Assembly (NCBI GenBank): GCA_035506535.1
Contig: DATJPE010000033.1
Coordinates: 35,506 to 99,505 of the forward strand
From: Actinomycetes bacterium
Lineage (GTDB): Bacteria > Actinomycetota > Actinomycetes > DATJPE01
Direction of reading: 5' to 3'
DNA length: 64,000 bases
In this document: positions 36,438-61,857 of the stretch, in pieces
How the letters are laid out: each line of letters starts with the position of its first letter
How positions within the stretch are numbered: the first letter of the stretch is position 1
The notes under the pieces: model-generated
The model's database searches: none
What the model was told of the DNA's origin: nothing
Seen by the model: the letters and a program-made list of their open reading frames with translations, nothing else
Program-made: the position numbers and the translations under genes

Positions 36438-37223
36438 TCAGTTCAGTGGTGTGAACGTCGCGGCCCCGGCGCAGGCGCCGCCGGTGGCCGCGCTCGGCGA
36501 GGACGGCCCGGCGACGGGTTGCAGCCCACCGCCCTGCGAGTCGTACCAGAACCAGGACCCGTTGGCCGGACCCTGAGCCGACCCGGTCGTGGTGTACGCC
36601 CGCAGGCAGTAGCCCTGTGCGGTCGAGGCGACGGCCACGTGCGCGGTCCGGCTGATCCCCGTGATCGGGCCCCGGACCGCGTAGTTCTGGTGGTCGGAAT
36701 ACCACGTCTCCATCGCCTGCGCGGCGTTGACGAGAGCCTGCTTCGCGTCGGAGTCCGTGGCCTGCTTGATCGCCTGCTGCCCGGTCTGCGTCTCGGCCTG
36801 CGCGGTCCTGCCCAGGCCACGGAACACGAGGAGACCGCCCACGACCGCGACGAGCGCCACCACGGTGACGACCAGCCAGGTGCCGCGACCGGATCCGCCG
36901 CTGCCGCTCATCCGTACCGTGCCGCTCACCGGCCGGCTAGGCGACGCGTACGTCGCATCAACGGGGAAGCCGAACTGGTCGACCGCGCCTCCGGCCTGCG
37001 CCTGTGGTGCCCAGCTCGGGGCGGCGGGCGGCGTCGACGCGGGCGTGGCTGATGGGGCCGCGGCAGGTGTTGCGGGGGTCGCGGGCGGGACTGCCGGAGG
37101 CGTCGGTGCCGGGGGCGGCGCGGCGGTCCAGCCCTGCCCGGTCCACCAAGCGGGCTGCCCGGTGTGCGGATGCACGTACCAGCCGGGCGCCGGGCCGGTC
37201 GCCGGCCGGTCGGTGGTGGACAT
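36438..37223 (-). CDS. DUF2510-TM-pilin-like domain protein
   Basis: APGWYVHP..WWTGQGWT; TM; DAKQALVNAAQAMETWY and a Cys pair. Confidence 0.72.
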   Translation of the reverse strand: MSTTDRPATGPAPGWYVHPHTGQPAWWTGQGWTAAPPPAPTPPAVPPATPATPAAAPSATPASTPPAAPSWAPQAQAGGAVDQFGFPVDATYASPSRPVSGTVRMSGSGGSGRGTWLVVTVVALVAVVGGLLVFRGLGRTAQAETQTGQQAIKQATDSDAKQALVNAAQAMETWYSDHQNYAVRGPITGISRTAHVAVASTAQGYCLRAYTTTGSAQGPANGSWFWYDSQGGGLQPVAGPSSPSAATGGACAGAATFTPLN

Positions 37224-37293
37224 GGCTCCTCCAGACGTCCAGAGCAGCATCGACCGGGACCAGTCCCGGCTTGATAGCGCGTTCGGCTCCCGC

Positions 37294-37315
37294 TGTCGGC
37301 GGGACTCCCTACAGT
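37294..37315 (+). promoter_or_regulatory. PafBC-type (RecA-NDp) promoter TGTCGG-N10-TACAGT
   Basis: Exact match; 7 nt to ATG 37323 (leaderless). Confidence 0.75.
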
Positions 37316-37322
37316 CCCAGCC

Positions 37323-38564
37323 ATGACGACGCCGCCGATCGTGCTGGTCCCCGGATTCTGGCTCGGCGCCTGGGCCTGGGACGAGGTCGCCGACATCCTG
37401 CGGGCCGAGGGGCACGACATCACCGCCGTGACGCTCCCGGGCCTTCGTTCCCCCGACGAGGACCGCGCCCGCGTGCGACTCGCGGACCACGTCGACGCGG
37501 TCTGCGCCGCGGTCTACGCCGCCGGGGCCCCCGTGGTCCTCGCCGTGCACAGCGGCGCCGGAGTTCCCGGGTACGCCGCCAGCGACCGCATCCCCCAGCA
37601 GATCGCCGCCATGGTCTACGTCGACTCCGGACCCGCCACCGGGGCGCTGGACCCGGACTTCGCCGGTGACGACCTGCCCCTGCCCTCCTGGGAGGGTCTG
37701 GTCGCGGACGGGAACAGCATCGAGGGGATCAGCGAGGAGCAGCTCGCCACCTTCCGCGCGCGAGCGCTGCCCCAGCCGGGCGGGGCGATCCGCGACGCGC
37801 CGGTGCTGACCAACCAGGCGCGGCTGGACGTCCCGACCACGGTGATCTGCACCTCGGCGACCGCCACCCAGCTGCAGGAGTGGGTCGGCCAGGGCTACGC
37901 CTGGATCGGCGGCCTCGCCGAGCTGCGCACCGTCGACTACGTCGACCTGCCCACGGGGCACTGGCCGATGTGGTCGCGTCCCGCCGACCTGGCCGCAACC
38001 TTGTCCGGCATCGTCCGCCGGTACTCGGTCGCGGTCGAGCCGCCGTACGCCGGGGACGAGACCGCGACCCTGCTGGGCTCGCTCGAGCGGCAGCGGCGCA
38101 CGCTGGCGTGGAAGTGCGGCGGGCTCGGCTCGGAGGGGATGAACGCGCGGCTGGGCCCGAGCTCGCTGTCCCTCGGCGGGCTGCTCAAGCACATGGCGCT
38201 GGTCGAGGCGAACACGTTCTCGCTCAAGCTCAACGACCACGGGCTCGGACAGCCGTGGGAGTCGGTGGACTTCGATGTCGACCCCGACTGGGAGTTCCGC
38301 ACCGCCGCGCAGGACTCCCCGGCGGAGCTGTTCGCCCTGTGGCGGGCCGCCGTGGCCAGATCGCGCGAGGAGGTCGCGCAGGCGCTGGCCGAGGGCGGCA
38401 TGGACCGCCTATCTCGGCGAGAATGGCCCGACGGGAGGGTGCCCACGTTGCGGCGGCTGGTGGCCGACATGGTCGAGGAGTACGCCCGCCACGTCGGGCA
38501 CGCCGATCTCATCCGGGAGTCCGTCGACGGGCTCACCGGCGAGGATCCCCCGCCGCTACCGTGA
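37323..38564 (+). CDS. Alpha/beta-hydrolase fused to a DinB/DUF664 domain
   Basis: VPGFWLGAWAW, VHSGAG, GHWPM; then ERQRRTLAWKC, KHMALVE, EEYARHVGHADLIRE. Confidence 0.85.
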   Translation: MTTPPIVLVPGFWLGAWAWDEVADILRAEGHDITAVTLPGLRSPDEDRARVRLADHVDAVCAAVYAAGAPVVLAVHSGAGVPGYAASDRIPQQIAAMVYVDSGPATGALDPDFAGDDLPLPSWEGLVADGNSIEGISEEQLATFRARALPQPGGAIRDAPVLTNQARLDVPTTVICTSATATQLQEWVGQGYAWIGGLAELRTVDYVDLPTGHWPMWSRPADLAATLSGIVRRYSVAVEPPYAGDETATLLGSLERQRRTLAWKCGGLGSEGMNARLGPSSLSLGGLLKHMALVEANTFSLKLNDHGLGQPWESVDFDVDPDWEFRTAAQDSPAELFALWRAAVARSREEVAQALAEGGMDRLSRREWPDGRVPTLRRLVADMVEEYARHVGHADLIRESVDGLTGEDPPPLP

Positions 38565-38568
38565 CGGG

Positions 38569-39222
38569 ATGACCGAACCGATCACGGCAGGGCAGTTCCA
38601 CGCCGCCGAGGGCGTCGAGGACTGGCGAGCCCTCTACACCGGCGTCTCGGCCCACTTCCGTACCGGGTCCTTCTCGACGGGCGTGGCGCTGGTCGAGGTC
38701 ATCGGCCGCCTCGCCGACGCCGCCGACCACCACCCTGACGTCGACCTGCGCTACGGCGGGCTCACGGTGCGCCTCGTCACCCACTCCGTGCAGGGGCTGA
38801 GCGATCGCGACGTGGCCCTGGCCCAGCAGATCTCGGCGGCGGCCCGCGAGCTCGGCGTCGCGGCCGACCCCGCGGCGGTCCAGGACGTCGAGGTGGCGAT
38901 CGACGTGCTCGACCTCTCGGCCGTACGGCCGTTCTGGCTGGCCGTCCTCGGCTACCGCGAGGCCGCCGGACGGGACTACCTGGTCGACCCCCACGGCCGC
39001 TGGCCGACCATCTGGTTCCAGCAGATGGACGAGCCACGGCCGCAGCGCAACCGGGTCCACGTCGACATCTGCGTGCCGCACGACGAGGCGCAGACGCGGA
39101 TCGCCGCCGCGGTCGCCGCCGGCGGACGGCTGGTGAGCGCCGAGCACGCCCCGTCCTGGTGGGTGCTCGCGGATCCCGAGGGCAACGAGGCGTGCGTCGC
39201 GACCTGGCAGGGTCGCGACTGA
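38569..39222 (+). CDS. Pterin-4a-carbinolamine dehydratase-like plus VOC/glyoxalase fusion
   Basis: ADHHPDVDLRY..THS; NRVHVDI; ADPEGNEAC. Confidence 0.88.
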   Translation: MTEPITAGQFHAAEGVEDWRALYTGVSAHFRTGSFSTGVALVEVIGRLADAADHHPDVDLRYGGLTVRLVTHSVQGLSDRDVALAQQISAAARELGVAADPAAVQDVEVAIDVLDLSAVRPFWLAVLGYREAAGRDYLVDPHGRWPTIWFQQMDEPRPQRNRVHVDICVPHDEAQTRIAAAVAAGGRLVSAEHAPSWWVLADPEGNEACVATWQGRD

Positions 39223-39226
39223 GGAC

Positions 39227-40783
39227 TCACGCGGCCGCGGCGAGCGCCACGGCCACCATGGCCACCACCAGCAGCGCGAGCGCGAGTGGCCAGACGAAGC
39301 GCAGGTAGCGGTCGTAGCCGACGCGTGCGATCGCCAGACCCCCGACGAGGACGACACTGGTTGGCGACACCATCAGCGTCAGCCCGTGCCCGAGGACCCA
39401 GGCCGTCACGGTCGTCGTCCGGTCGACGCCCGCGAAGTCCGAGAGCGGTGAGAGCAGCGGCATGGCGAGCGTCGCGTGCCCCGAGCTCGACGGGATGAGG
39501 AAGGCGAGCGGGATGTTGATGAGCACCGTCACGGCCGCGAAGACGCCGGCCGACGCGCCACCGACGAGGTGCTCCATCGAGTGCAGGATCGTGTCCAGAG
39601 TCCGGGTGTTGGTCATGATGACCGAGACTCCGCCGGCGAGGAGGACGACCAGTGCCGGGGTCATCATGTCCGCGGCGCCGGCGGCGATGAGCCGGACGAT
39701 CTCCCGCTCGTTCATCCGCGCGACCACGCCGACGACGACCGAGGCGATGAGGAACAGCATCGCCAGCTGCGGGAACCACCAGTTCAGCTCGAACCAGTAC
39801 GGCGTCACGGCGGTCGCGTGCGTCAGGTCGTCCGCCGGACCGGTCGCCGCCCCGAGGATGCTCGACCACGGGATCACCGAGAAGATCATCAGACCGAAGG
39901 CCGCCACGGTGATGCCGAGCACCACCTTCTGGGTGCCGCTCAGGGTCTCGCCTGGGGCGTCGGAGGACTCACCCGTGTGGTCGTCCCAGCCGACGAGCGA
40001 GGCCGCCGGATCCCGGCGCACCCGAGCCGCATAGCGAAGCACCCAGGCGACGGCCAGGCCGGTGATCACCGCCCAGAGGAGCAGCCGAAGGCCGATCCCG
40101 TCGCCTATCGAGACCCGCGCCTCCCCGGAGGCCACCCCGATCGAGAACGGGTTGACGGTCGCTCCCATGACGCCCGCGAGGGCTCCGAGGATGATCATCG
40201 CCGCGGTGACCAGCCGGTCGTAGCCGAGCGCCGCCATCAGCGGGAGGAACAGGGCGTAGAAGCCCAACGTCTCGACCGAGAAGCCCATCGTCGAGCCGAG
40301 CAGTGAGAAGAGCACCATCACCGTGACGATGAGCAGCCAGCCCTTGCTGCGCAGCCGGTGGGCCAGCGCGGCGATCGCCACCTCGAGGCTTCGAGTGGCG
40401 AAGGAGACCGAGATGAACGCTCCGATCGCCATGATGAAGACGATCACCCCGATCTGGCCGAACATCCGCCCGACCGTCTCGGTGTCCACCACGCCGGTGG
40501 CCGGGTTGCGAAGCCCGTACGTGCCGTTGACCGGCGCCAGCAGCAGCTGTTGGACCCGCTCGCCGAAGGTCAGCGGGTTCGGGACCCGGTGGTAGGTCCC
40601 CGGGATCGGCGAGCCGTCCGGGTCGGTGCGATACGCGCCGGCGGGGATGAGAAGAGCGGCGATCCAGACCAGCACGGTGACGATCGCGAGAGTGGTCACC
40701 GCGGAGGGGAAGCTGAAGCCCTTCGCGGGTGCGAACGTCTCGGAACCGTCGCTGTCCTGCGCCTCGGCGGCCGGCGCGGACAT
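39227..40783 (-). CDS. YfcC family (DcuC-like/ArcD2) transporter
   Basis: FSFPSAVT, IPAGAY, NPFSIGVA, PSSSGHA. Confidence 0.88.
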   Translation of the reverse strand: MSAPAAEAQDSDGSETFAPAKGFSFPSAVTTLAIVTVLVWIAALLIPAGAYRTDPDGSPIPGTYHRVPNPLTFGERVQQLLLAPVNGTYGLRNPATGVVDTETVGRMFGQIGVIVFIMAIGAFISVSFATRSLEVAIAALAHRLRSKGWLLIVTVMVLFSLLGSTMGFSVETLGFYALFLPLMAALGYDRLVTAAMIILGALAGVMGATVNPFSIGVASGEARVSIGDGIGLRLLLWAVITGLAVAWVLRYAARVRRDPAASLVGWDDHTGESSDAPGETLSGTQKVVLGITVAAFGLMIFSVIPWSSILGAATGPADDLTHATAVTPYWFELNWWFPQLAMLFLIASVVVGVVARMNEREIVRLIAAGAADMMTPALVVLLAGGVSVIMTNTRTLDTILHSMEHLVGGASAGVFAAVTVLINIPLAFLIPSSSGHATLAMPLLSPLSDFAGVDRTTTVTAWVLGHGLTLMVSPTSVVLVGGLAIARVGYDRYLRFVWPLALALLVVAMVAVALAAAA

Positions 40784-44012: not shown

Positions 44013-44034
44013 ACGCTACTCGCGACCTCGGACA
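44013..44034 (-). promoter_or_regulatory. Near-match PafBC-type promoter TGTCCG-N10-TAGCGT
   Basis: One mismatch in the hexamer; 8 nt to ATG 44004. Confidence 0.4.
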
Positions 44035-46263: not shown

Positions 46264-46286
46264 AATGTACGAGAGGTCACCGACAA
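46264..46286 (-). promoter_or_regulatory. PafBC-type (RecA-NDp) promoter TTGTCGGTG-N8-TACATT
   Basis: Exact match; 6 nt to ATG 46257. Confidence 0.8.
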
Positions 46287-61835: not shown

Positions 61836-61857
61836 TGTCGGAGGGCGGGTCTAACGT
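61836..61857 (+). promoter_or_regulatory. PafBC-type (RecA-NDp) promoter TGTCGG-N10-TAACGT
   Basis: Exact match; 7 nt to ATG 61865. Confidence 0.8.

Follow-up and report, generated by a model that had tools for sequence, protein, structure and literature searches.

A PafBC-type leaderless promoter ahead of a hydrolase-DUF664 fusion gene and a PCD-VOC gene: a candidate damage-induced detoxification operon in an uncultured actinobacterium

A two-gene unit in the DNA of an uncultured wetland actinobacterium begins with a promoter of the type used by the mycobacterial regulator PafBC (the RecA-NDp type). The unit lies on the forward strand, from 37294 to 39222, within a stretch of 64,000 nucleotides (Actinomycetes bacterium, assembly GCA_035506535.1, contig DATJPE010000033.1, positions 35,506 to 99,505), which was analysed as a whole and is called the window here. 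The first gene encodes an alpha/beta hydrolase fused to a PF04978 (DUF664) domain of the DinB superfamily, and the second encodes a protein with a PCD-like domain and a VOC domain. The unit is probably a LexA-independent leaderless operon, induced by single-stranded DNA through PafBC and serving small-molecule (thiol-dependent) detoxification. Its regulatory layout is well supported by comparison of related loci; dependence on PafBC, induction by damage and all of the chemistry are predicted from sequence.

The promoter element

The promoter occupies positions 37294 to 37315 of the forward strand and consists of TGTCGG (37294-37299), the 10-nt spacer CGGGACTCCC and TACAGT (37310-37315). Seven nucleotides (CCCAGCC) separate it from the ATG of gene 1 at 37323. 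The PafBC consensus, tGTCgg(N10)tA(N3)T, was derived by chromatin immunoprecipitation sequencing (PMC8635444). Its GTC triplet is strictly conserved and contacted by PafB, and the 3' part of the motif is the -10 element of SigA, with no -35 element (PMC8635444). The window site agrees with every specified position of this consensus, including the invariant GTC triplet of the -26 element, and it too lacks a -35 element. An earlier note, made from the letters of this DNA, had called a PafBC promoter here, and its reading of motif, spacing and leaderless geometry holds. The word "perfect" that it used is justified for the 22-nt consensus (PMC8635444) but not for the extended form that is commonest in the orthologue alignment (TGTCgGtg), which has T at position 7 where the window site has C.

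The placement of the site is also the expected one. A distance of 7-8 nt between motif and start codon is the commonest geometry among the PafBC candidates of M. tuberculosis, with Rv0133, Rv0184, Rv0427c, Rv1128c, Rv1317c, Rv1406, Rv1482c and Rv1588c as examples (Table S7, PMC8151990). With initiation 7-8 nt after the -10 element, transcription would start on the forward strand at 37322 or 37323, and the predicted mRNA would be leaderless or carry a 1-nt leader. A scan of 36900-39500 found no sigma-70 promoter of the -35/-10 kind, no LexA box lies near the promoter, and a terminator scan around the unit returned nothing.

The motif is strongly over-represented in the window, with three matches to TGTCRG-N10-TANNNT against 0.12 expected. 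The looser form TGTC-N12-TANNNT has four matches against 0.43 expected, a number reached in 0 of 100 shuffles, and occurrence of the motif by chance is excluded. All four sites stand 6-8 nt ahead of an ATG. Besides the site before gene 1, they are TGTCCG-N10-TAGCGT (44013-44034, reverse strand), 8 nt before the ATG of a small gene; TGTCGG-N10-TACATT (46264-46285, reverse strand), 6 nt before that of a DUF222-HNH gene of the 13E12 type; and TGTCGG-N10-TAACGT (61836-61857, forward strand), 7 nt before that of a second DUF222-HNH gene. The two divergent DUF222-HNH genes served as internal positive controls. The 13E12 genes of M. tuberculosis "contain the RecA_NDp" and are damage-induced (PMC3381160), and Table S7 of PMC8151990 includes them among the PafBC candidates, at a motif-to-start distance of 7 nt.

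The 99-nt intergenic region between gene 1 and the divergent DUF2510/pilin-like gene contains a perfect palindrome, CCGGGAC-CA-GTCCCGG (37254-37269), which stands 25 nt upstream from the -26 element and may be an operator of that divergent gene. It is not kept in the orthologous loci inspected. A local operator like that of SiwR (see below) and a DosR-like box (at this palindrome) were also considered, and both were rejected on grounds of conservation and spacing.

Conservation of the promoter with the hydrolase family

The scans of related loci took one genome per species and at least 80 loci each, and the counts given here are lower bounds with a taxonomic bias. Nearly all of the loci in the hydrolase scan (at least 80) hold a stand-alone hydrolase of about 237 amino acids, 50-70% identical to the N-terminal half of the gene 1 product. 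The element GTC-N12-TANNNT occurs within 76 nt of the gene at 18 of the 83 loci listed, against 0.26 expected, and at 17 of these the -10 element ends 6-7 nt before the start codon. The 17 box-bearing orthologous loci (L001, L002, L005, L007, L010, L012, L013, L014, L015, L016, L017, L018, L022, L029, L033, L049 and L080) all hold stand-alone hydrolases, among the loci listed. The carriers include Cellulomonas denverensis, Cellulomonas sp. RIT-PI-Y, Agrococcus sp. KRD186, and metagenome-assembled genomes of Mycobacteriales and Pseudonocardiales. The consensus of the orthologous promoters is TGTCgG-N10-TAGGGT-N6/7-ATGAC. Several orthologues from Gaiellales and Acidimicrobiales keep the -10 element alone, and those of Chloroflexota have Shine-Dalgarno leaders and no box.

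In a tree of the hydrolase domain, the window and all box-bearing loci fall into one clade (64 rows, SH-like support 96), within which the box-bearing loci occupy at least five separate positions. The box is found in none of the 21 rows on the other side of the tree, which comprise Rhodococcus and a second clade of fusions. By the box counts and this distribution, the promoter is tied to the hydrolase family, and the association is old within Actinomycetota. To judge from the loci compared, the conserved association is thus one of a PafBC-type promoter with the hydrolase family and not with the fusion. The earlier note had named conservation of the motif upstream of orthologues as a check on its proposal. 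The motif does recur, before 17 of the 83 listed loci, but these are all stand-alone hydrolases, and it is missing before the fusions (L081 and those of clade B; see below). The unit that the note had named therefore stands as far as promoter and hydrolase are concerned, and the fusion is not the conserved part of it.

The first gene

Gene 1 (37323-38564, forward strand) encodes a protein of 413 amino acids whose fusion architecture is supported by Pfam, by alignment A1 and by an AlphaFold2 model (pLDDT 83.7). The reading frame has no start codon before the ATG at 37323, and the N-terminus aligns with those of the orthologues (MTTPPIVLVPGFW / MTSAPIILVPGFW). The alpha/beta hydrolase spans residues 1-236 (37323-38030; Abhydrolase_6 at residues 6-225, 55 bits, cut-off 26.3). 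A low-confidence linker in the model (residues 237-244) joins it to the PF04978 domain (residues 249-403, 38067-38531; 116 bits, cut-off 27). These matches bear out the fusion of an alpha/beta hydrolase with a DinB/DUF664 domain that the earlier note had read from the translation.

The hydrolase motifs that had been singled out are likewise real. Among 23 homologues in alignment A1, Ser77 (in VHSGAG) is invariant and His213 (in PTGHWP) nearly so. Asp208 is also nearly invariant in the hydrolase alignment, and five arginines (R48, R145, R147, R167 and R219) are conserved. The best relatives in sequence and fold are the SABP2/MES methylesterases, methylketone synthase I, hydroxynitrile lyases, BioH3 and PytH; Foldseek with the AlphaFold2 model gives an E-value of 1e-10 to SABP2, MKS1, HNL and BioH3. 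The hydrolase shares with this group a small cap domain and a nucleophile serine in H-S-x-x-G that aligns with theirs. It differs from them in its low identity (15-23%) and in having Ser/Thr at the position of the catalytic acid, and its invariant arginines have no checkable counterpart in the group.

The hydrolases fall into two sequence types. Clade A, with the signature GFWLGAWAWD ... AVHSGAG ... HWPMWSRP, contains the window, the fusion protein P0002 and the stand-alone genes. Clade B, with GLWLDGSSW ... GHSAGA ... HWPQFTRP, is 36-41% identical to the window and holds most of the fusions. Clade A hydrolases also occur outside Actinomycetota, in Peribacillus kribbensis (L026), in an Acidobacteriota metagenome-assembled genome (L035) and in Chloroflexota (L019, L036-L059). 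They are 51-62% identical to the N-terminal half of the gene 1 product, which is unusually high for a small alpha/beta hydrolase, and this conservation suggests either a universal substrate or horizontal transfer.

PF04978 was formerly DUF664 and has been renamed "MST" in Pfam. In the window protein this half is predicted to form a four-helix bundle (helices 246-265, 284-303, 333-361 and 376-402 of the AlphaFold2 model). The three histidines to which the earlier note had drawn attention, His290, His390 and His393, are invariant in nine MST halves (alignment A2) and are candidate metal ligands; His290 aligns with the helix-1 histidine of the DinB-type structure 2ou6. A single-sequence search of the Protein Data Bank (PDB) with the MST half gave no match. 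The comparison of most interest is with Rv0443 of M. tuberculosis (PDB 8f5v/8fx9). It is like the window half in its PF04978 entry (scored here with Pfam for the window half alone) and in its four-helix-bundle DinB fold with a divalent-metal site (predicted on the window side). The solved mycothiol S-transferases have a metal site of two histidines and an aspartate (PMC10950700). The window half, by comparison, has three conserved histidines, and its sequence similarity to Rv0443 is marginal. The MST half is best regarded as a member of PF04978 and is not filed here as a mycothiol S-transferase; for this sequence the Pfam name overstates the case.

The second gene

Gene 1 ends with TGA at 38562-38564, and after a gap of 4 nt gene 2 begins with ATG at 38569 and runs to 39222 on the same strand. 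Its product of 217 amino acids is, as had been noted, a PCD-VOC fusion (Pfam, alignment A3, and an AlphaFold2 model with pLDDT 90.2). A PCD-like Pterin_4a domain covers residues 15-90 (38611-38838; 67.6 bits, cut-off 26), and a VOC domain, Glyoxalase_6 (PF18029), covers residues 109-210 (38893-39198; 88 bits, cut-off 23.6).

The PCD half resembles PCD/DCoH in fold (TM-score 0.8) and keeps the His-His...His arrangement with its canonical 17-residue spacing, in the form of His54, His55 and His72, which we take to be the PCD active-site histidines. It is unlike PCD/DCoH in falling below all of the NCBIfam PCD equivalog cut-offs (67.4 against 80) and in that these histidines are not kept across the wider PCD-VOC family. 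The VOC half has an invariant His164 and Asp140, along with a conserved Gly205-Asn206 (alignment A3); Glu207 is present in the window but is not among the positions listed as conserved. Fold neighbours of this half are the thiol transferases FosB, FosA and FosX, the bleomycin- and zorbamycin-binding proteins, and GloA2. The likeness to FosB, FosA, BLMA, ZbmA and GloA2 is one of VOC fold (paired beta-alpha-beta-beta-beta units), at a TM-score of about 0.55, and the difference is that the VOC metal site of gene 2 appears incomplete.

A caveat in the earlier note, that gene 2 has a possible -10 element of its own, deserves to be kept. The sequence TACCGT (38557-38562, forward strand) ends 6 nt before the ATG at 38569 and could serve as an internal leaderless -10 element. 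Stand-alone PCD-VOC orthologues are usually leaderless, with TAnnnT 6-8 nt before the start, and a second promoter at this place is credible by that comparison. There is no GTC box 16 nt upstream of TACCGT, where the sequence is GAGGAT. Two PCD-VOC homologues do have a leaderless box of the PafBC type to themselves (TGTCAG-N10-TAGCGT at L135 and TGTCAT-N10-TACCGT at L152).

The gene downstream of the unit (39227-40783) encodes a DcuC-type carrier. Because it is convergent, the unit ends at 39222. Upstream lies the divergent DUF2510/pilin-like gene (36438-37223). No regulator gene adjoins the unit here or at the orthologous loci.

Fusions among four domains

Among the matches listed, the closest fusion orthologue of gene 1 is P0002 (locus L081), a protein of 403 amino acids with the same architecture; its hydrolase part is 63% identical and its MST part 58%. 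Dozens of proteins that join an alpha/beta hydrolase to an MST domain were found, and with P0002 they dispose of the objection, raised by the earlier note against itself, that the fusion might be a strain-specific loss of a stop codon. Few of the cluster representatives at 50% identity span the junction, most relatives being stand-alone hydrolases or stand-alone MST domains, and the fusion is, on this sampling, a minority architecture. NCBIfam and PADLOC have no family for it.

The hydrolase and the MST, PCD and VOC domains are linked to one another in several further ways. All four are fused in P0004, P0005 and P0020 (hydrolase-MST-PCD-VOC). The hydrolase is fused directly to PCD-VOC in P0222 and P0250, PCD to MST in P0141 (65% and 59% identical to the window domains), and VOC to MST in P0176. 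In addition, a hydrolase gene adjoins a PCD-VOC gene at L015 (divergently), L041 and L059, and an MST gene adjoins one at L085, L087, L090 and L095. The recurrence of these fusions in several orders is strong evidence for a pathway or complex shared by all four domains. The two-step enzyme against a genotoxin that had been proposed earlier stays at the level of inference, and the evidence points instead to such a four-domain module.

The PafBC box is not a general property of these fusions. None of the other fusion types at L081-L083 and L164-L167 is preceded by it, and the nearest approach at L169 is a weak cGTCCG site some 80 nt upstream. The clade B fusions L164-L166 are without a box, and two of them have a divergent ArsR/HTH_20 regulator gene (L165:1845-2426 and L166:1828-2403). 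Because clade B fusions adjoin such a regulator and lack the box, the hydrolase-MST module would be under different (chemical-sensing?) control in other lineages. The MST, PCD and VOC parts of the window unit are closest to the four-domain fusions (65%, 66-68% and 68% identity, respectively), in which the hydrolase is of clade B. In the simplest history, a PafBC-controlled clade A hydrolase gene would have been joined to an operon of MST and PCD-VOC genes like that at L090.

The PCD-MST fusion P0141 stands at L167 (1094-4553) between a gene for a NERD-domain protein and one for an Old Yellow Enzyme (Oxidored_FMN), with a Glyoxalase_6 gene nearby. This neighbourhood is a hint of electrophile or quinone handling.

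A model for the unit, and alternatives

In the model that we favor, DNA damage would produce single-stranded DNA that activates the WYL regulator PafBC, as is established for mycobacteria. PafBC would bind the -26 element TGTCGG (37294-37299), and by "sigma adaptation" the housekeeping RNA polymerase would use the -10 element TACAGT without a -35 element. Transcription would begin at about 37322/37323, at or beside the A of the ATG, to give a leaderless mRNA. Gene 1 would be translated from it directly, and translation of gene 2 would be coupled to that of gene 1. A constitutive leaderless promoter at TACCGT (38557-38562) might in addition serve gene 2. Of the products, the hydrolase (Ser77/His213) would be an SABP2-like enzyme of the ester or thioester hydrolase type. 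The DinB-fold domain, from the thiol-transferase superfamily, would contribute a putative metal site (His290/His390/His393). The PCD-like domain and a VOC domain of the FosB/glyoxalase/bleomycin-binding type would work together with these two. Most likely, the unit would use a thiol (mycothiol) to inactivate a reactive electrophile or genotoxin, or would clear its conjugates, during genotoxic stress.

A number of observations weigh against this model. On the regulatory side, about half of the actinobacterial stand-alone orthologues listed keep only the -10 element, and L081, the closest fusion orthologue among the loci listed (60% identical), keeps TAGGGT but lacks the GTC box. Expression of gene 2 may not depend on PafBC, to judge from its candidate internal promoter, and the sequencing runs that contain this sequence are DNA metagenomes only. 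On the chemical side, a full catalytic triad is not demonstrated for the clade A hydrolases, because they have Ser/Thr where the canonical acid is expected (after strand 172-176); clade B has Glu there. A profile search with the MST half against the mycothiol S-transferase structures 8f5v/8fx9 gave E-values of 0.44-0.55. Distant PCD-VOC homologues have lost the PCD histidines, and no conserved His/Glu was seen in the first VOC module (both in alignment A3).

Two narrower readings of the chemistry are each unlikely to be correct as they stand, but they survive better than the challenges to the regulation. In the first, aldehydes would be processed by a mycothiol-dependent pathway of glyoxalase or formaldehyde type, with methylglyoxal, glyoxal or formaldehyde as the genotoxic substrate. 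The DinB and VOC domains would handle a thiol hemithioacetal, and the alpha/beta hydrolase would cleave an S-acyl-mycothiol thioester. The VOC fold matches to glyoxalase I GloA2 and to FosA/FosB fit this proposal, as do the presence of thiol transferases in the DinB superfamily, the thioesterase-type methylketone synthase I in the fold group of the hydrolase, and the hint of electrophile handling at L167. Yet the glyoxalase-type metal site is conserved only in part, and the PCD domain is left unexplained. Moreover, the Chloroflexota loci L041 and L059 carry the hydrolase and PCD-VOC genes without MST, and Chloroflexota are not known to make mycothiol.

The second, equally tentative reading is protection against natural-product genotoxins (bleomycin- or zorbamycin-like, mitomycin-like or colibactin-like) by binding or cleavage. 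Induction by damage would suit a resistance function, the VOC fold matches include bleomycin- and zorbamycin-binding proteins, the colibactin hydrolase ClbS has a DinB fold, and the DinB genes controlled by SiwR respond most strongly to zeocin and H2O2. The resemblance is one of fold only, with a TM-score of about 0.55 and identities of 14-20%. In addition, the identity of the hydrolase stays at 50-70% between classes and even between phyla, which suggests a universal metabolite rather than a niche antibiotic.

The model of PafBC control must also be weighed against a reading in which the box is read by some other WYL-type activator, SiwR-like and either local or global, so that the unit would still be stress-inducible but in another regulon. 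This seems improbable. In its favor, SiwR controls DUF664/DinB_2 genes, PF18029 replaces DUF664 beside siwR in some Actinobacteria, and CCCGC/GCGGG arms flank the TGTCG core of the window site. These arms are not kept in the 17 orthologous promoters, however, which do keep TGTC-N12-TAnnnT, and there is no adjacent regulator gene here or at the orthologous loci. The SiwR operator has a different layout (a 19-bp palindrome that spans -10 to -35). Finally, the same motif stands before four unrelated genes in 64 kb, 13E12-type genes among them, which is the pattern of a global regulon.

Somewhat less probable still is an ordinary constitutive leaderless SigA promoter in which TGTCGG is incidental, with the genes belonging to housekeeping metabolism and not being damage-inducible. 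Leaderless promoters with only a -10 element are common in Actinomycetota, and eleven of the actinobacterial orthologues compared have the TAGGGT -10 element at the same place without a GTC box (L003, L004, L006, L008, L009, L011, L020, L023, L024, L028 and L081). Against this stand the 65-fold excess of the full motif at the exact position across orthologues (17 against 0.26), the retention of T, G, T and C of the -26 element in nearly all of the 17 box-bearing orthologues, and the excess of sites within the window itself (four against 0.43).

That the fusion is an assembly or frameshift artefact joining two genes is very improbable: the window is a metagenome assembly and both halves are mostly found as separate proteins, but the sequence from a second assembler is identical and shows neither an indel nor a variant where the halves meet, P0002 is built in the same way (60% identity), and there are dozens of hydrolase-MST and four-domain fusions. 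The second assembly, a Logan contig from a public wetland-metagenome run, is identical over 37200-39300; it probably derives from the same sample, and so gives no independent support.

Relationship to known systems

The reference system for the promoter is the set of mycobacterial RecA-NDp/PafBC promoters, such as recA P1 and the leaderless promoters of Rv1128c, Rv0427c (xthA) and Rv1317c (alkA). The window promoter is like these in its 22-nt bipartite motif without a -35 element, ending 7-8 nt before the start, and in that the motif is also found on 13E12-type genes. It is unlike them in that its targets are not repair genes, its host is an uncultured wetland actinobacterium and its link to PafBC is predicted. 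Work on the PafBC regulon has centred almost wholly on mycobacteria, and the prevailing view is of a set of DNA-repair genes with some unexplained passengers. No orthologue of the hydrolase, the fusion or the PCD-VOC gene is mentioned in the searchable PafBC literature, including Table S7 of PMC8151990, in agreement with the earlier note, which had not recognized the unit as a described member of the regulon.

The closest functional parallel is the SiwR-dinS system. SiwR of M. smegmatis is a WYL activator that senses single-stranded DNA under genotoxic stress and upregulates the DinB_2/DUF664 operon msmeg_1357-1356 (PMC10693628). Genes for DUF664 and PF18029 proteins substitute for each other beside siwR, and the functions of these families are unknown (PMC10693628). 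The window unit resembles this system as a genotoxic-stress operon of DUF664 and PF18029 proteins (its induction being predicted). It differs in that it has a global PafBC-type box in place of an adjacent regulator and a palindromic operator, in the addition of a serine hydrolase and a PCD-like domain, and in the fusion of its domains. There are also precedents for both halves of gene 1 under PafBC. The DinB_2 gene MSMEG_3910 belongs to the PafBC regulon (PMC10693628), and Rv1833c (haloalkane dehalogenase 2, of the alpha/beta fold) is a PafBC candidate in M. tuberculosis. These two are a DinB-superfamily protein and an alpha/beta-fold hydrolase, respectively, but they come from other families (DinB_2 and dehalogenase, as opposed to DUF664 and SABP2-like) and are single-domain and unlinked.

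What appears to be novel is therefore a PafBC-type operon of DinB-superfamily and VOC enzymes that is extended by a conserved hydrolase and a PCD-like domain. In at least 17 genomes, members of a hydrolase family with 50-70% identity across actinobacterial orders have kept a leaderless promoter of the PafBC type. The family is tied by repeated fusion to DUF664 and PF18029, both of which are found beside SiwR, and to PCD-like domains. Together these data indicate a conserved but uncharacterized chemical-defence arm of the damage response. The proposed link between the DNA-damage signal and small-molecule (thiol) chemistry is testable, and cultured carriers of the stand-alone hydrolase with the box exist (Cellulomonas denverensis ATCC BAA-788 for L012, Agrococcus sp. 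for L080).

A bolder and rather doubtful extension is that the four domains make up a previously unrecognized, four-component thiol-dependent pathway, whose hydrolase was wired to the PafBC regulon early in Actinomycetota. Examples would be a mycothiol-dependent glyoxalase/aldehyde system of actinobacteria or a system that counters genotoxins in general. If so, the enigmatic DinB/DUF664 and PF18029 genes in the regulons of SiwR and PafBC would gain a biochemical context. Actinobacteria have about 17 DinB-like genes each (PMC10693628), and a solution of the chemistry would explain this abundance.

Further observations on related loci

Two of the four-domain fusion loci share a leader of about 60 nt (gggttcgggttcacccaactcgcctcacactggaggg; L082:2880-3000 and L083:2800-2875). 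It follows a TGTCGT-N9-TAGGCT element, whose spacing is one base short, and may be a regulatory leader. At L083 (2872-3000) a stop codon follows the first 25 or so codons of the four-domain fusion, and the gene has been called from a downstream TTG; the N-terminus of this hydrolase appears to be disrupted. Immediately upstream of a clade A hydrolase gene at L025 (3001-3285) are MST-like remnants, broken into at least two pieces, which look like the decayed remains of an MST gene placed in reverse order (MST ahead of hydrolase). Members of the same MST subfamily are also fused to other partners, namely a pentapeptide repeat and DinB_2 in P0180 and a kinase of the AAA_33/chloramphenicol-phosphotransferase-like type in P0244.

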